Of a DNA stretch of 57,505 bases, positions 32,322 to 54,421 are shown one piece after another. The position numbers were made by a program, and so were the translations under genes. Numbering within the stretch: the first letter of the stretch is position 1; each line of letters opens with the position of its first letter. A model generated the notes under the pieces. That model saw only the letters and a program-made list of their open reading frames with translations, made no database searches and was not told the origin of the DNA. The stretch is from the sequence record SRR31156797_353. One strand, given 5' to 3'.

Positions 32322-32939
32322 TCACAGATCATCCTCATCCCGGAGTGCTAATTCAATTTGCTGGAGTGTGTCAGTAAAAGAGCCGGCCTCTGGGACTTCG
32401 GGTAGGCTGAGCAGGAGGAGGTCTTTGATGCCTCGTCGCTGAATTTCGGCCTTCAGCTCTTCGGTAAAGACACCCTCTGTGGCCCCGAAACGTTGAAGGG
32501 GACTAGCGTTCCAAACCATGCCGCCCCAGATTTGCTCAGAATCCGCTTCGACCGCAGAGCACTTGAGGCCGCACGTCGGGCTACCGTCCCTGAACACGAT
32601 GCCGACCACCTGATGATCGTTGTCACTGTAAGTTTGAATCTGGTCGCATGTCTGTTCCGCGATCTGTCGGCAATGTCGACGAAACATAGGATTACTATAC
32701 ATTTTCTTGACCTGGCCCCAGCGCATTGAGCCCAGGTAAGTCACTTCCGGGCAAGGCATTTGGTACATCGCTACATCATTGTCGAGCGCCAGATCGACCA
32801 TCTCGCGAATCACAGCCGGTTGACTTGCCAAGCCGCGCACACATGCGTTTTGGTTGAGAATGCAATGCGACAGGAATACCAGTTTTCCAGACCTGGCATC
32901 CTGCAGGCTGGCTTTTATCTGCCCTATCTTTTCAGTCAT
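32322..32939 (-). CDS. TudS-related (DUF523-like/CD3072-type) putative [4Fe-4S] desulfidase
   Basis: SHCILNQN, QMPCPE and DGSPTCG three-Cys pattern; GAGGAG RBS before ATG 32939. Confidence 0.75.
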   Translation of the reverse strand: MTEKIGQIKASLQDARSGKLVFLSHCILNQNACVRGLASQPAVIREMVDLALDNDVAMYQMPCPEVTYLGSMRWGQVKKMYSNPMFRRHCRQIAEQTCDQIQTYSDNDHQVVGIVFRDGSPTCGLKCSAVEADSEQIWGGMVWNASPLQRFGATEGVFTEELKAEIQRRGIKDLLLLSLPEVPEAGSFTDTLQQIELALRDEDDL

Positions 32940-32990
32940 GATCGCTCCTCTGTTTGAAGTGATAAACAATACTCTCTTCGGCCAACCGTA

Positions 32991-33854
32991 TCAGTAAGTG
33001 ATTGAAGGCAGGTAAGCACCTGTGGGCTCATTATAAAGGCCAAGGGTTATGAGGTTTGCCTGGCAGGCAAACCGGAGACCTTTGTTCAAGCACCAGCGAA
33101 CCAGATCTCCGTTGCGCGATGGCACAAGGAACCCCACACCTGGGAACTTGGGTGCTGCTCCAATTAACGCTTTCAAATCGTCATTGGACTCGGCGACGGC
33201 GTGGCCGGACCAGCCGATCCCTGTGGAATAGCCAGTTATACGGTCCAGACGTTGAACAATGGTGGCAGTTTCTTGGCGGATCGCGTCAATGAGCTCACCC
33301 GAACGATCGTGACCATGTACACGGTAGCAAAGTTGGTTGCATGCTGATAAATCCTTGTCTAGCGCTGGGCGGACATCATAACCTGAGATTTTAAGGGCGA
33401 GTGGCTTTCCCTGCATTGCTGAGAATGTCTCCAGGCAGTTAAAGCCCAACTTGGCGTAAAGCGCGAGCGCACGATAGTGCCAGGAGATCACCACACCCCG
33501 TAAACCAGGAAAGCGCGGTTGAACAGCGCGATTAATAATTGCCTGCATGAGTTGCCGCCCGATCGTAGTATTCATCACAAGAGGATCGATCGATAGCAGG
33601 CTTGCCCCAGCTATTACCGAGCGCTCATCAAGGAAAATACTGCCGACAACTTTTCCATTCAATTCAGCCACGACCGAATAAAAACCAGGGTGCGAGAGTC
33701 GCATGGTTATGAGTTCAGTGGCAATCTCTATCGTAGGCATTTGTGGTGCAAAATTATGTTGCTCGGCAATGGATTTGAACGCCTCGTAACAAATTCTTCC
33801 ACACTCTTTGGCATCTGCGATAACACCGGGTCGTAGCATCAGTTCCATGGTCAT
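32991..33854 (-). CDS. GNAT family N-acetyltransferase (two-domain)
   Basis: VVAELNGKVVG, IGRQLM, LALYAKLGF GNAT fold motifs. Confidence 0.8.
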   Translation of the reverse strand: MTMELMLRPGVIADAKECGRICYEAFKSIAEQHNFAPQMPTIEIATELITMRLSHPGFYSVVAELNGKVVGSIFLDERSVIAGASLLSIDPLVMNTTIGRQLMQAIINRAVQPRFPGLRGVVISWHYRALALYAKLGFNCLETFSAMQGKPLALKISGYDVRPALDKDLSACNQLCYRVHGHDRSGELIDAIRQETATIVQRLDRITGYSTGIGWSGHAVAESNDDLKALIGAAPKFPGVGFLVPSRNGDLVRWCLNKGLRFACQANLITLGLYNEPTGAYLPSITY

Positions 33855-41099: not shown

Positions 41100-41244
41100 T
41101 TCGGCTAACGTTGAGATTGCCGTATCAAAGATCGAGACATTTTCCTCTTTCCTTAAATGAAGGTGGGTGCCAATCACCAATGTTTAACTCATGATTTCTC
41201 ATGAGCAGTTACCTTACTCTTTGAGTGACCTGACTGCTGCGGCG

Positions 41245-42372
41245 TCACTTTTCTATCGCCTGAAATTTTTCAATGAATTTACGATCGATGTAGTCTTTGA
41301 GTTTGAATGCTAGCTTACCGCCAAAAATAACAGATGATTTGCAGAAAATCCCTTCATCGTTGCCCAGATTATAAATGAGCAAGTAAGAACCACCCGGCTG
41401 AAAGGGCTCCAGCGTTTCGCCTGCAAGGCTTGCCAGCAAATTATGGTACTACAATACTGGGTTTTCACGGACCGCATAGACACCAACCTTGTCCAGTGGT
41501 TCCGGTTCAAAATAAATACAATCCCCACCTCCAAAAATATTTGGATGAGTAGGGCATTGGAGGAAACGATTGACCAGAAGCCCTCCATCTGGACCAATGG
41601 GTAGCCCGGACTCAGCAAAAATAGATGAAGGCCGCACGCCCACAGCAGGAAAAATAATATCAGCAGGATGACTGGTGCCATCTTCCAGTTGGACGCGTCC
41701 CTTGTTGTCTATCTTTTTAACGTAGTTGCCTTCCAACACCTTCACGCCTCTTCTGGTTAGCGACGCAATGGCGAGTTTTCGAATTTTTGCAGGCTTACCA
41801 GGCATAATCTTTCTGCCTGTGTAAATGGTTATATGCGGTCGGTGTACTGCCTGACGTTGACAGAGTTGCTGCACGTTTCCGGCAATCTCTATCGAAGAAG
41901 GGCCACCGCCGATAATGGCTATATCAATATGACGTCCATTGCTCAACGAAAGAATTTTTTCCTGGGCTTGGAGCAAGCTCTCAATTGGTTTAGCTGTAAA
42001 AATTTCGGGGCTGTCTGTTTGTATTATATCACGAGGTACAGAGGAACCAGCATTGCATGAAAGGACATCGTATCTGATTTCCTGTTCTGAGCCTTCCAGG
42101 CGAACGACCTGCTTTTCCGGATCAATTGATGTTGCCCTACCCAAAACAAAGTCCCCGCCCTGTTGTTCCACCACCTTGCGGGTGGCAAAACGAATATCAC
42201 CAGGCTGGTAGGTTCCTCCCAACATTCCTGGTCCCATACCCGAGTAGTAGTGATGATCTGAGGGTTGAATAACAGTGAGGTCATACCCTTTGTCAATAAA
42301 AGTACAGACTCTGGTAAGGGTAACCATGTGGGCGTGACCACCGCCTATAAGAACCAATCTTTTTTTTTTCAT
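41245..42372 (-). pseudogene. NAD(P)/FAD-dependent oxidoreductase (resembles the N-terminal domain of SelD fusions), interrupted by an in-frame TAG at 41449-41451
   Basis: LVLIGGGHAH, YSGMGPG, IIGGG...E, GGGDC, KVGVYAVRE; the frame continues after TAG (YHNLLASL...KDYIDRKF). Confidence 0.8.
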
Positions 42373-42382
42373 TTTTCTCCCC

Positions 42383-43216
42383 TTACGCCATTGTATCGAG
42401 ATATTGGGTTAATTTGCTTATGTGGGTACGCTCTTCATTAGCAATATGCTGTAGGACCTCGCCTATCTCTGCCTGCTCAGCTTTATCTGCAGCTCGCTGA
42501 TACAGGTCAAGCGCCTGTGCTTCTATTGATATGGCAAGAGAGAGAATGTCCAGTTCTGATTCTAGGTCTGGGCTAAAGCGTGCCATATATTGTGCAGTGG
42601 TCAAACCCCCTTCCATGGCTGGCTGCACCATTTTTTCCAAAAAAGTATCCTCAGGCAAGCTTGTTCCTGTCACTTGAGTGTAGAGCGTCAACAATTGTTT
42701 TTGGTGCAGTATTTCAATATCGGCAAGCATCTGGAAGAGGTGCCTGGCTTCCTTTGTCGCGACATTTTCCTGCATATCGAGATAGAATTCCCGCAAGCCA
42801 TGTTCTAAGCCATAGCCGATAATGATTGTTTGCTCTGCGCTTTCCGCTCCGTTAAAGAGTTCTAGGCCAAGCTCAGGAAAACCGACGGCTACCTCGTTTT
42901 TCCATGCCTTGATACCTCCACTCAGGTTGTAAATTCGTGCAAACCCTTTTCCTGCCAACATTTGCGCAGCTACACGGCTGCGACCACCAATGGCTCAGTA
43001 GACAACGACATGCTTGTTGGAATCAATTTCTCCGAGTTTTTTATCCAATTCTCCCATGGGAACAAGAAGTGAGCCAGGGATATGCCCTGCTGCATATTCC
43101 TTAGGTTGACGGACATCAAGAAAAGTGACATTGCCTGCATCTTCATCAGCGACTAGTTTTTTGGCTTGATTGGCGTCAATTGAAGTGACTGGAGTAAAAA
43201 ATTGTTTCCATAACAT
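42383..43216 (-). CDS. Selenocysteine-containing rhodanese fused to a ferritin/rubrerythrin-like domain (Sec74)
   Basis: The two listed ORFs are in frame across TGA 42995-42997: LDVRQPKEY..GHIPG..VVVY-U-AIGGRSRVAAQML..GGIKAW; C-terminal E/ExxH pairs; GAGGAGG RBS before ATG 43216. Confidence 0.88.
42959..42994 (-). promoter_or_regulatory. Bacterial SECIS-like hairpin
   Basis: After UGA: CAUU..CGCAGC-CGUGUA-GCUGCG..AAUG; the apical loop starts 18 nt downstream and contains GU. Confidence 0.75.
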
Positions 43217-43771
43217 AGCAAACCTCCTCAGTTCGGGTGAGAGCACTTTTGTGCTGCTGGTAGGACAGTAGCCTCTTCTGCAATCTGTCTTGGTCGGCAG
43301 GGAAAAGATGCCAATGTGGGATCTCATAGTATAAACCATGCCTAAAGCGCTGTGAAATATTGATTTGTTATCTTGAGAGTAGTAGTGCTGACCTCTGGGC
43401 TTTTGGTTTAGACTCGGTCACGGGTGATGAAATGCTTCATCCGCAGTATAGAACCCCTCTGTTCTGAGACCATATATTGACCTCTAAGATGTCATTATCA
43501 TTTAAAAGTAAGGTGAGCAATAACATGAAATGTCGGCTCTGATTTTTCCCTTGTCATGGTAGCCAAATCATCATGGTTTTTGTGAGTTATTTATGGACAT
43601 ATGGACTATCTCATTTAAAATGTAGAGTGAAAAATGAGGATTTAGCCATGATTGATAAATTATGTTAATAATCATTTCTACTACTCTACCACTCGTCTTT
43701 AATCTACAGGAAATACACCCTTAGCCGGGCGGCGTTTTCGGCGAAATACTATTCAATCTACCTTTTTAGCC

Positions 43772-46039
43772 ATGGATATCACTGAACTGAGCGAACTGTT
43801 TTACGAACTTGTTTATCCGAGCATGCCCAGTGAGGTTGATGTTGAAGAAAGTCTGCAGTCGCTTGTAGGCGAAAATGAAGATACTGTCACCGATATATTG
43901 CGGCAGGTGCCCATTATTTGGCCTGTTTCTTACTCACTGTGTTTTGCGTATTTGGCAAATGTGCATAAAGCAATACCGTATATCACGTGGGATAATCTTG
44001 ATATATGGGTAAAAGAATTGCTTGAGCAGTATGAGGAACAAGGGCTGCATTTTGTTCTGGCTCGGATAAAAACAGTGCGCTTTTCCAGTTCACGACTGGA
44101 GGTACAAAAAGGTCTGCGGCTGGATGATGTGCGAGGACGATTGCAGTTGTATCTTAATGGTCTGGCTGGGAGGGAAGTGCCACTTATAGCCTCAGGTACA
44201 ACCTATACCGATACCCGCTCAATTTTCGTGCCTTGGGAGTTAAATATCTTTGAGGATGACAACGATACTTTTCTCCTCTACAAATGTCTTATTTCATTTC
44301 AATGGGCATCTCAAAAATTAGGCACTGTCGGTATCCGTGGTTATGGGAATACATCTGGGAAAATGAACCATCCGCTGCAGGTTTTTTTTACATCAGGCTC
44401 GGATCCTCTGATGATTATGCAGTTGTATCATTTTTTTGAAATGGTCCGGACACTTTCTTTTTTGCGCAGAGAATTACCTGGTCTCATGAAATCTTTTACG
44501 AGCATTGCTCCTCGACTGCGTCGCCTTTTGCCTGAGACTGCAAATTCAACAGACCTTATCCTTTGTCTTCAACATCTGCTGCTTGAAGGAGCCGGATTTG
44601 ACGGTACATCATCTTCCCTCATGAATCGGATTGCGCACTGGGTGAGGCAATGCGAGGATCAGAAGGCTCTGCGCACAACCAGTCAGCGTGCTGCATCAGA
44701 TATTGCTGCTCTTGTAGGCAAAGACAGTCTTTATTCCTGGGAGAGCGAACCCCTTGTTTTTCAAGGTGAGCTACGCCTTAATGAGGTAATGGCTGCCATT
44801 AAAGAGCAGCGAATATTGCAGCAGCAGGACTTTATTGAAACATTTTCTTCCTATTTAGCTGAGTCTAAAGAGTATGATGTGGTTGGAGAGACTGTCGCAG
44901 ATCAATCTGATGACGGACGTCCTGACTGCCTGGATCAGTCAGCAGATATTATAAGAGGGCTCGACGAAGAGAAACAGGCTGGAAAACCAGTATACATTCT
45001 GCTGGGGGAACAAAAGATCGAGCTTAATGAAGAGCTTGCAGAACTTACAGAGGAGATTGTCGAGGACCTGGGACATCTGCCTGCTGATTACGTTAACCTT
45101 GCAGTCATGGAAGCCGATCAAAGTTGGGGACTGGCAGGTGATAAGGGCAATGATGCTGTGCAGACAGCTGCACGGTTTAAGTATAATGAGTGGGACTATA
45201 GGCGTAAAGGGTTTCGTAAAGATTGGTGCGTTGTTACAGAAAAGCCTGTCCAACCAATGCCGTCTTCTTTTGTGGAAGACACCCTGGGTAAATATCGGTA
45301 TCAGATAGCAATGCTCAAGAGACAGTTTGAGATGTTGCAGACCACAACCAGATATGTCTACAGACAGAAGGAAGGAGATGATATCGATTTTGATGCAGTG
45401 GTGGAATCAATTGCAGATTCCAGGGCAGGCTATACACCTTCTGACAATCTGTTCATTCGTCTGTTGCCAGATCAACGCGATATAGCGGTTTTATTTTTGG
45501 TGGATATGTCGAGTTCCACCGAGGGATGGGTCGGGAGATCTATCAAGGAAGCACTTATTTTAATAAGTGAGGCCATGGAGATGCTCAATGACAGGTATGG
45601 GATCTATGGATTTTCAGGCAGGTGTCGCTTGGGTTGTGAGATCTTTCCTGTCAAATCTCTTGATGAAAAGCATTGTGCCGAGATCAGGCAGCGAATAGCA
45701 GGTATTTCACCGAAAGAATACACACGCATGGGGCCAGCCATCAGGCATATGTTATCACTTTTTCAGCAGGTTGATGCTGCCTTGCGTTTGTTGGTGATAC
45801 TTTCTGATGGCAAACCCAAAGACTACGACGATTATAAGGATGAGTATGCCATTGAAGACACACGCCATGCCTTGTTTGAAGCGCAAGCTGCCGGTATTCA
45901 TCCATTTTGCATCACCATTGACGAGCAGGCTCACTCATATATGAGCCATATGTATGGCCCAGCCCATTTTATTTTTGTCGATAATCTGAAGAAGTTACCA
46001 ACGCTTATGCCGGAAATTTATCGTACTTTGACCACGTGA
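43772..46039 (+). CDS. NorD/CbbO-like von Willebrand factor A domain protein
   Basis: YNEWDY, EGDDIDFDA, MIDAS DMSSST, YTRMGPAIRH, LSDGKP, PFCITID. Confidence 0.88.
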   Translation: MDITELSELFYELVYPSMPSEVDVEESLQSLVGENEDTVTDILRQVPIIWPVSYSLCFAYLANVHKAIPYITWDNLDIWVKELLEQYEEQGLHFVLARIKTVRFSSSRLEVQKGLRLDDVRGRLQLYLNGLAGREVPLIASGTTYTDTRSIFVPWELNIFEDDNDTFLLYKCLISFQWASQKLGTVGIRGYGNTSGKMNHPLQVFFTSGSDPLMIMQLYHFFEMVRTLSFLRRELPGLMKSFTSIAPRLRRLLPETANSTDLILCLQHLLLEGAGFDGTSSSLMNRIAHWVRQCEDQKALRTTSQRAASDIAALVGKDSLYSWESEPLVFQGELRLNEVMAAIKEQRILQQQDFIETFSSYLAESKEYDVVGETVADQSDDGRPDCLDQSADIIRGLDEEKQAGKPVYILLGEQKIELNEELAELTEEIVEDLGHLPADYVNLAVMEADQSWGLAGDKGNDAVQTAARFKYNEWDYRRKGFRKDWCVVTEKPVQPMPSSFVEDTLGKYRYQIAMLKRQFEMLQTTTRYVYRQKEGDDIDFDAVVESIADSRAGYTPSDNLFIRLLPDQRDIAVLFLVDMSSSTEGWVGRSIKEALILISEAMEMLNDRYGIYGFSGRCRLGCEIFPVKSLDEKHCAEIRQRIAGISPKEYTRMGPAIRHMLSLFQQVDAALRLLVILSDGKPKDYDDYKDEYAIEDTRHALFEAQAAGIHPFCITIDEQAHSYMSHMYGPAHFIFVDNLKKLPTLMPEIYRTLTT

Positions 46040-52936: not shown

Positions 52937-53599
52937 AACTCTCTCCCTTCTTCTTTTGGTTTAAAAAAATGCATTTGATTTGATAAAAAAATTAAATGCA
53001 TTTTATTTTTATATCAACCTTAATGAATATGCTAGAAAAAAGTCTTATTAAGCAATGGTTAGGTAGTACATTTGAAATGAGTTCAGGGGGATAAGGGGGT
53101 AACTTATATAGGCTCAAGGTTCCAAGTAATGGTACAGATTGTGTCCATAGGGCGTGAGGATATAGGATCAACGTGTACCAGTTGATAACATGCGTTGCCG
53201 AGCAAGGCAAAATCGTAGCAAATAACTCTTATTGGTATTCACTTGAAGTGACGCCGATTCCAATACACCTCTGAACGAAGTTAGTGTTGTCATTCCTCCA
53301 CGTAGGCAGAACTGAATATGTAAATACTTCTAAAGATGTGAAAACACATCATGCAGCTAACAGGTTATTTTTTAGGGAGCAAAAGACATGGAATCACGTA
53401 ATTGCCTCTTATCTGAAATCGATAGCCAGGTTGAAAACTTTATAATAACCTTCTGGATTGGCTCATTACTTTTTCTTTTGCCTTGCTTTATTGTGCGAGT
53501 AAAAGAGTTGAAGAAGAGCAGGGTAGGTTTGTATAGGTTATTTAGCCTGCTCTACGATATCACTTCCTTTACTTTCAGCTGTCCAGGAGTAGCGTTACT

Positions 53600-53829
53600 A
53601 TGTCCTCTAAGTCCCTCGAGGTAACCCCGTCTCGTCATTGCGAATAGTTCTAATTGTACCGTACGTAACACTTGTTATCCTGCTCGTGGCAGTGCTTGGA
53701 TTTTTATCCTATCACACTGGTCGTGATGCAGTGTTAGTGGTTTCTAATCATCTGCTTGAAGAAACAGTAAACCGTATCATTCAGGCCGTGGACAGGCATG
53801 TAATAGGTTCAGTGACGAGGCTTATTTGA
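53600..53829 (+). pseudogene. 5' remnant of a membrane Cache-type sensor gene
   Basis: LRIVLIVPYV..LGFLSY..GRDAV..LLEETVNRI.QAVDRH resembles sensor N-termini; the RBS-linked ATG 53600 is out of frame and the ORF stops after ~63 aa. Confidence 0.5.
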
Positions 53830-54421
53830 TGGATAAAAGAATGATTTTTCAAGACAGGCCTGGCCGCCCTGCAGGTTCCAAAGTTGGCTATTACTCTTCA
53901 GACGATTAGGATAATTACAGATCGTTAAATCTTATAAATGGCACTTCTACAATATTCTGTGCACACAGGATAAAAAAGAGGGGGTAGAGGCATTGTTTGA
54001 AAAACCTCTTATTTTGAAAGACGAAGAACCTTCATGTCCTCAAAAAAAGTTTGTATCTATGAAGCAGTACTCCACGGAATCTAGGCTTACTTCTAGACAA
54101 GATCAAGCAGGAAAAAAATCATTGCTAGAGTCATCCCACTTACTGGTTCCCATCTGGAGCACTGTGACCAAGTGCATTAGAAGGTGAAGCGAGATTATGT
54201 TCTAATAGCTAAAGCTTTGCATCTGATTTAGCCATTTGTTAATGCAATGACTGAGTTAACAAATCGTATTTTTTGAGGCTGTCATAGGAGAAAGATTTCG
54301 CCGACAAGCAAGTAAACCAGCCACGGGCTCGAAGCTGAAAAATAATTTTTTATTGGCCAAGAAAAAATGTTAATTTGGCCCCTGTAACGGACGATTGATG
54401 CTGTATTAAGGTGCGGATATG

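Follow-up and report, generated by a model that had tools for sequence, protein, structure and literature searches.

A predicted selenoprotein joining a rhodanese to a ferritin-like di-iron domain, and its flavoprotein partner

We analyzed a stretch of DNA of 57,505 nucleotides (nt) from sequence record SRR31156797_353, hereafter the window, and focused on two adjacent genes on its minus strand: a predicted selenoprotein gene, in which a rhodanese domain with an in-frame TGA at its catalytic position is fused to a ferritin-like di-iron domain, and the gene of a flavoprotein, here called the partner, directly downstream of it (table 1). The open reading frames (ORFs) 42995..43339 and 42383..42961 on the minus strand proved to be one frame, parted by the TGA at 42997..42995 alone. 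When this TGA was read as selenocysteine (Sec, U), translation from the ATG at 43216 to the TAA at 42385..42383 yielded 277 residues with a single recoded codon, U74, in the context VVY-U-AIGGRSRVAAQ, and U74 aligned with the invariant cysteine (Cys) of the full-length homologs. A first-pass annotation, made from the letters of the window alone, had described two ORFs sharing a frame split only by TGA and had placed this TGA at the rhodanese catalytic Cys, and on both points translation and alignment agreed with it. Its broader proposal, a single gene for a 277-residue Sec-decoded rhodanese joined to a di-iron domain, was supported by homologs carrying TGA or Cys at this codon and by a hairpin specific to the TGA forms. 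Thus, we concluded that 43216..42383 is very probably one gene, with UGA decoded as Sec at the rhodanese active site.

Table 1. Features of the selenoprotein-flavoprotein locus (positions in the window)
Feature	Position	Strand	Evidence and remarks
Predicted selenoprotein gene, rhodanese/ferritin-like fusion	42383..43216	minus	277 codons plus TAA; homologs of 275-281 residues; same reading at five genome loci
In-frame TGA, codon 74, rhodanese catalytic position	42995..42997	minus	Aligned with invariant Cys; TGA in 54 of 87 homologous instances
Shine-Dalgarno-like GGAGG	43223..43227	minus	6 nt before ATG 43216; read from sequence
Promoter-like TTCACA-17-TATACT, upstream of gene	43328..43356	minus	Consensus match only, 10 of 12 positions
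Rhodanese domain, residues 19-108	42893..43162	minus	Pfam PF00581, E 2.3e-23; Foldseek and VIA-align matches
Ferritin-like four-helix bundle, residues 122-277	42386..42853	minus	Pfam, AlphaFold2, VIA-align, invariant ligands
SECIS-like hairpin directly 3' of UGA	42954..42994	minus	Fold -16.9 kcal/mol; pairing 94.0% in Sec versus 65.6% in Cys forms
Hairpin upper stem	42982..42977 with 42970..42965	minus	CGCAGC/GCUGCG at +13..+18 / +25..+30, 6 bp
Hairpin loop CGUGUA	42976..42971	minus	18 nt separate UGA from loop
Hairpin lower stem	42994..42991 with 42957..42954	minus	4 bp; +1..+4 paired with +38..+41
Partner, NDH-2-like / TIGR03169-like FAD flavoprotein	41245..42372	minus	Begins 10 nt past the stop of the selenoprotein gene
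In-frame TAG inside partner gene	41449..41451	minus	3-nt insertion, NPVL-*-YHNL

The identity of the catalytic codon was then followed across the family. When the protein was searched with its U replaced by Cys, 2746 matches were returned, mostly of 275-281 residues with both domains, several of which bear the source name 'rhodanese-related sulfurtransferase/rubrerythrin'. Homologous DNA loci were collected from reference genomes (8 loci) and metagenomes (80 loci), and 86 of the 89 sources gave a readable codon, in 87 instances overall; three loci (L008, L040, and L051) lacked the motif. The catalytic codon was TGA in 54 instances, TGC in 18, and TGT in 15, so that position 74, for which the first-pass annotation had anticipated Cys or TGA, held one or the other in 87 of 87 (54 TGA and 33 TGC/TGT). 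The TGA forms included the cultured Desulfogranum marinum DSM 2058 (83% identical) and three Desulfobulbaceae genome bins, one labeled Desulfobulbus sp. and another D. propionicus; the copy of Desulforhopalus vacuolatus DSM 9700 carried TGT. The conservation of the protein crossed the TGA, with 55-84% identity to the read-through products of four of the genome loci (L001 and L003-L005) and an invariant loop after the UGA.

In a maximum-likelihood tree of 84 complete sequences (three incomplete ones were dropped), 10 changes between Sec and Cys were needed, and at least 7 of them were forced by well-supported branches. The window fell in a well-supported clade of 6 rows, in which four rows are Sec forms and two are Cys forms. 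When 301 genomes sampled evenly from the phylum Desulfobacterota were examined, 65 of them, about a fifth, contained a full-length family match; 27 of these carriers had one in-frame TGA (its position was confirmed in G001), 36 had no stop, 1 had TAG, and 1 had TAA. The last two, the full-length members of G219 and G011 with in-frame TAG or TAA in place of TGA, are possibly pseudogenes. These data also bear on the proposal that the gene is dead or misread, that is, that a window-specific mutation from TGC or TGT to TGA or an assembly mistake produced the stop, which we regarded as the least credible explanation of all. Some decay of the locus is possible, since the partner gene carries a window-specific disruptive insertion (described below); however, both halves of the protein are fully conserved, and the same TGA recurs in L001, L009, and L010, which are the closest relatives, as well as across the whole clade. 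Furthermore, a Logan contig of run X1 was identical to window positions 41200..43300, TGA included, at a word depth of 25, a comparison made at the level of contigs rather than reads. Run X1 is probably the source sample, so that its contig is a separate assembly rather than independent material; it nevertheless shows that the TGA is not a quirk of one assembler.

We next consider the RNA downstream of the codon. In bacteria, the selenocysteine insertion sequence (SECIS), for example that of Escherichia coli fdhF, is a stem-loop within the coding sequence directly 3' of the UGA, with G and U in its apical loop. The first-pass annotation had pointed to a 6-bp GC stem with a CGUGUA loop 18 nt past the TGA, and this hairpin was found just as described. 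Like the fdhF element, it starts right after the UGA and has a loop with G and U about 18 nt downstream; unlike that element, to which its sequence is unrelated, it is written into the codons RSRVAA of the active-site loop, so that protein and RNA constraints overlap, and its binding by SelB is putative. Since the stem is encoded by the codons of an invariant R-S-R-V-A-A, nucleotide conservation alone proves nothing; we therefore compared synonymous sites between 50 distinct Sec forms and 32 distinct Cys forms. All six pairs of the upper stem formed in 34 of 50 Sec forms, compared with 2 of 32 Cys forms. GCU encoded Ala83 in 48/50 Sec and 4/32 Cys forms, AGC encoded Ser80 in 50/50 and 24/32, and GCG encoded Ala84 in 31/50 and 3/32, respectively. 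Paired cells amounted to 94.0% of 300 in the Sec forms, a level reached by none of 500 shuffles, and to 65.6% in the Cys forms, a level reached by 109 of 500. At two stem pairs, compensatory double changes from C-G to A-U were observed in Sec forms, in three sequences each. The full stem occurred in just two Cys forms, L002 and L011, and as both are nested in the Sec clade of the window, they look like recent conversions from Sec to Cys. Conservation of the hairpin at the TGA, a further point on which the first-pass annotation could be checked, was thus borne out, with the upper stem kept in TGA forms and decaying at synonymous sites in Cys forms. These sequence comparisons indicated that selection maintains the hairpin only where a UGA occupies the codon, and they established, at the level of sequence, one gene with a conserved UGA and a selected hairpin.

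Against this background, we considered it very improbable that the TGA is a true stop, leaving a 73-residue rhodanese fragment and a 192-residue ferritin-like protein that starts at ATG 42961. Such pieces are what standard ORF calling and the public gene calls yield, as the first-pass annotation had foreseen: the calls hold products of 73 and of 191-192 residues. In D. marinum, a 73-residue piece and a 191-residue piece lie on the same contigs, and six C-terminal pieces of 191-192 residues, with 80-86% identity, stood among the closest database matches, each beginning exactly at the Met that follows the TGA. These C-terminal-only proteins exist in the databases because gene callers stop at TGA. 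Also in favor of a true stop, the evidence for Sec machinery comes from genomes of relatives rather than from that of the window. However, the 11 codons from the TGA to ATG 42961 spell out AIGGRSRVAAQ, the active-site loop, which is invariant; in 54 independent sequences the TGA coincides with the catalytic residue; the hairpin is constrained in TGA forms only; and a rhodanese ending at residue 73 would lose half its fold.

The machinery for Sec decoding was searched in the genomes behind five of the loci (L001-L005). Both selA and selD were present in all five, every copy of selD with an in-frame TGA of its own; a tRNA-Sec was found in all five at 64-72 bits; and selB was above the cut-off in four, the fifth genome being just 1.8 Mb. 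From the codon, the hairpin, and these genes, we infer a SelB-dependent insertion of Sec at codon 74: the SelB/tRNA-Sec route would read the UGA at 42997..42995 as Sec, directed by the hairpin right after the codon. Across the phylum, selD was present in 275 of the 301 sampled genomes, and its co-occurrence with the family therefore discriminates little. The SelD genes listed across the phylum (G001-G005 and most of the 275) nearly all have one in-frame TGA, and SelD itself is a selenoprotein in this phylum.

Several observations weigh against Sec decoding in the window. The evidence for selA, selB, selC, and selD covers the genomes of relatives, not the genome of the window itself, and a tRNA scan of the window found no tRNA gene. 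One of the 27 genomes with a TGA-containing copy, G174, had no selD match at E <= 1e-50, probably owing to an assembly gap. The hairpin alone folded no better than chance (z = -0.97, with 33 of 200 shuffles folding as well), and in its 71-nt context (z = +0.63) the minimum-energy fold did not use it, so that it is the comparison of Sec with Cys forms that makes the hairpin more than chance. The codon statistics of that comparison ignore shared ancestry; the repeated switches between Sec and Cys nevertheless provide several independent contrasts despite kinship. No match at gathering score was obtained with Rfam for the whole window, and a looser Rfam scan of 42000..44000 gave three matches at chance level (E 5.8-7.8). 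Finally, a literature search of full texts, which extended neither to supplements nor to the 2004 selenoproteome and 2005 bSECISearch papers, found no study of the fusion family and no experiment on it; figures in those two papers may already show the fusion protein.

Rhodanese-like selenoproteins as such have been catalogued, some of them with a UxxG motif (PMC13188914, PMC9312934, PMC1976440). With its PF00581 domain and Sec in U74-A-I-G77, the window protein belongs to the rhodanese-like UxxG kind as defined in a table row of PMC13188914 (forms 2/4). It shares with the catalogued proteins, as these are described, the PF00581 domain, Sec for the catalytic Cys, deltaproteobacterial hosts, prediction by bioinformatics, and the lack of an assigned function. 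The catalog rows, which we compared by description rather than through example sequences, name a rhodanese domain only, and the passages concerned mention neither a fusion, nor a flavoprotein partner, nor a codon constraint specific to Sec forms. Thus, the Sec-rhodanese kind is already catalogued, and the window protein fits its description in these passages. As for the first-pass statement that no function is known for the architecture, no study of it was indeed found, but with 2746 matches the architecture is not obscure.

In the AlphaFold2 model of the protein (predicted local distance difference test, pLDDT, 87.8), residues 10-112 adopted a rhodanese fold and residues 122-277 formed a four-helix bundle; the predicted template modeling score (pTM) was 0.63, hence the orientation of the two domains is uncertain. 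The rhodanese part matched single-domain rhodaneses, among them 3gk5 with Z 16.9 and a root-mean-square deviation of 1.3 over 97 aligned residues. Among its closest solved relatives were the rhodanese domains of flavoprotein persulfide reductase fusions (3nta, 3icr, 6pfz, and 8a56) and of persulfide dioxygenase (5ve3). Weak rhodanese matches to the selenouridine synthase MnmH and to ExtH were also obtained. Two NCBIfam models scored below their cut-offs, namely NF041203, the rhodanese_LYCAU (seleno)protein (41.7 bits against 115), and NF045694, TsoB (26 bits against 805). In the loop, Y73, C/U74, G77, R79, S80, and R81 were invariant among 115 aligned sequences.

Residues 223-275 of the C-terminal half scored 40 bits with the Pfam Rubrerythrin model PF02915, whose cut-off is 22.8, in an alignment confined to the N-terminal part of the model (positions 1-55). 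The bundle aligned with the ferritin-like structures 3fse, 8w1d, 9qq4, 2vzb, 2fzf, and 3sid at VIA-align Z values of 14-16.6, a range that only slightly exceeds the values attained by helical bundles through their arrangement alone. The same 115 sequences kept the predicted di-iron ligands E138, E168xxH171, E232, and E262xxH265 without exception, so that the two E...ExxH sets which the first-pass annotation had noticed in this half are real and invariant. The four-helix bundle and the E, ExxH, E, ExxH pattern are shared with bacterioferritin, mini-bacterioferritin (9qq4), the bacterioferritin-related thioferritin (2vzb), and Dps-like PA4880 (8w1d), as well as with symerythrin (3sid), the Pyrococcus protein 2fzf, and rubrerythrin/nigerythrin (1yux). 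The window domain is only 6-22% identical to these di-iron proteins, a rubredoxin domain is missing from it, and it stands C-terminal to a rhodanese in a single chain. True rubrerythrins are defined by a C-terminal rubredoxin-type Cys4 iron site. The window protein has the di-iron bundle with E/ExxH ligands and lacks the Cys4 site: the chain ends at residue 277 with no rubredoxin domain, and position 74 is its sole Cys or Sec. Therefore, the C-terminal half is ferritin- or bacterioferritin-like rather than a true rubrerythrin, and of the earlier label 'ferritin/rubrerythrin-like' the ferritin-like di-iron bundle stood and the rubrerythrin proper did not. For the same reason, as no other Cys exists in the chain, Sec74 would have no intrachain resolving thiol.

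The partner gene followed directly downstream on the same strand at 64 of the 72 loci with room for it (45 Sec and 19 Cys); it was missing at 8 loci whose flanks offered 1200 nt or more, and 14 further flanks were too short to tell. A comparison of neighborhoods across the loci revealed no third gene family conserved around the pair. When a profile of 51 partner orthologs was searched against the PDB, structures of type II NADH dehydrogenases (NDH-2; 9pxk, 4nwz, and 5na1) and FSP1 ranked at the top, followed by sulfide:quinone reductases, with NADH oxidases and peroxidases lower; the sole invariant Cys of the 51 sequences was that of the GGGDC motif, which belongs to the flavin adenine dinucleotide (FAD) site. 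In the window, the partner is interrupted by the TAG listed in table 1, which would end it at residue 307 of about 374. The insertion, which resembles a GTA duplication, was missing from eight of eight relatives and present in the X1 contig. The TAG was also considered as a pyrrolysine codon and rejected, the extra codon being absent from all eight relatives. With its partner truncated, the module may be impaired in the organism of the window.

The best NCBIfam match of the partner was TIGR03169 (Nterm_to_SelD), the model of an oxidoreductase domain that other bacteria carry fused to SelD; the match extended over its full length, with 248 bits for the intact D. marinum ortholog (L001) and 194 for the window piece, both below the curated cut-off of 310. 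This match raises the question of whether the pair serves selenium supply, with the rhodanese binding Se and the TIGR03169-like flavoprotein reducing it to selenide for SelD. We considered such a role improbable. The whole-length match to a model with this name and the weak resemblance of the rhodanese to MnmH and ExtH speak for it; the score under the cut-off speaks against it, and so does the absence of sel genes both from the window and from the conserved neighbors. In addition, at least 4 of the 65 carriers (G011, G092, G155, and G174) had no selD match, and two of them, G092 and G155, carry intact Cys forms, which argues against a selenium-specific role, a weak test with selD so widespread in the sample.

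What the pair may do was considered in light of the rhodanese loop, the di-iron site, and the partner together. The product would be a 277-residue cytoplasmic protein with Sec74 in a canonical rhodanese loop, U-A-I-G-G-R-S, followed by the ferritin-like di-iron domain. We tentatively favored, as the leading possibility and one that falls short of being probable, that the selenoprotein and its NDH-2-like partner form a two-protein redox module for sulfane sulfur. In this module, an intermediate of the persulfide type (Se-S) would be held on Sec74, and its reduction or oxidation would involve the FAD of the partner together with the di-iron site; NAD(P)H or a quinone would serve as the second electron donor or acceptor. 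The sulfane-sulfur module was favored because the loop is of the sulfurtransferase type and the hosts are sulfur-cycling, and because, in solved structures, rhodanese domains are repeatedly paired with flavoproteins or iron enzymes whose substrates are persulfides.

The nearest analogs differ in instructive ways. The known rhodanese-containing persulfide reductases are single chains whose flavoprotein part has a catalytic Cys next to the FAD. In the Npsr of Shewanella loihica (3nta), the CoADR-RHD of Bacillus anthracis (3icr), the NAD-dependent persulfide reductase of Archaeoglobus fulgidus (6pfz), and a CoA-persulfide reductase (8a56), a rhodanese works with a flavoprotein of the pyridine-nucleotide-disulfide-oxidoreductase fold, as is proposed for the window. 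Compared with these enzymes, the window has two genes instead of one, an additional di-iron domain, Sec in place of Cys, and a partner with no conserved Cys outside GGGDC that is nearer to NDH-2. The fused flavoprotein with a catalytic Cys by the FAD, which marks a persulfide reductase, is thus not what the locus encodes, as the genes are separate and no such Cys is found. This counts against a persulfide-reducing function: the catalytic Cys that the known enzymes possess is missing from the partner, which is closer to NDH-2 and FSP1, that is, NADH:quinone-like.

These same properties of the partner would fit a rubrerythrin-type defense of anaerobes against O2 and peroxide, which we ranked after the sulfane-sulfur module and consider a somewhat less likely role for the same selenoprotein. 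Electrons would pass from NAD(P)H through the NDH-2-like flavoprotein to the di-iron site, which would reduce H2O2 or O2, and Sec74 would be the peroxidatic or a relay residue. The ferritin/rubrerythrin-like domain has the complete set of di-iron ligands, the partner, which is devoid of a redox Cys, is similar to NADH:acceptor oxidoreductases, and the family occurs chiefly in anaerobes (65 of 301 phylum genomes). However, defense of this kind leaves unexplained a rhodanese loop built for anionic sulfur species, and the rubredoxin domain of true rubrerythrins is missing. With still lower expectation, we considered that the pair represents an uncharacterized two-component enzyme class in which a chalcogen held on a selenolate is processed at a carboxylate-bridged di-iron centre; here, S or Se would be held on the selenolate, and electrons would be exchanged with NAD(P)H or a quinone. 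We know of no studied rhodanese, ferritin-like protein, or flavoprotein that shows such selenolate-chalcogen/di-iron chemistry.

In the rest of the window, a whole-window scan for same-frame ORF pairs split by TGA left the selenoprotein gene as the only one to qualify. The pair 32991..33854 and 32322..32969 (minus strand, TGA 32993..32991) was tried as a selenoprotein and rejected, as it reads as two ordinary genes with their own starts. On the plus strand, 43772..46039 is transcribed divergently and encodes a protein of 755 residues in which a von Willebrand A domain lies at the C-terminus and for which NCBIfam gave no match; its ortholog is equally placed in D. marinum (L001 2892..5162), which shows synteny beyond the two-gene module, in close relatives only. 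The region 52940..54420 comprises about 1.5 kb with no ORF of at least 100 residues, no tandem repeats, and no Rfam match at gathering score.

The recoding itself is textbook; the family and its partner are uncharacterized and open to experiment in cultured relatives. As the gene is systematically split at its Sec codon in annotation, many proteomes lack this protein and counts of the selenoproteome are too low. The comparison of synonymous sites between Sec and Cys forms is a clean test for a SECIS and could be reused elsewhere. In this family, which is common in sulfate-reducing and sulfur-disproportionating bacteria, three redox elements come together: a sulfur carrier based on a selenolate or a thiolate is coupled to a di-iron site and to a flavoprotein of its own. 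Because Sec and Cys interchange frequently, the family lends itself to studying the contribution of selenium to a rhodanese. If the pair did turn out to be an enzyme class that processes a selenolate-held chalcogen at a di-iron centre, the module could be an overlooked step in anaerobic sulfur or selenium cycling.

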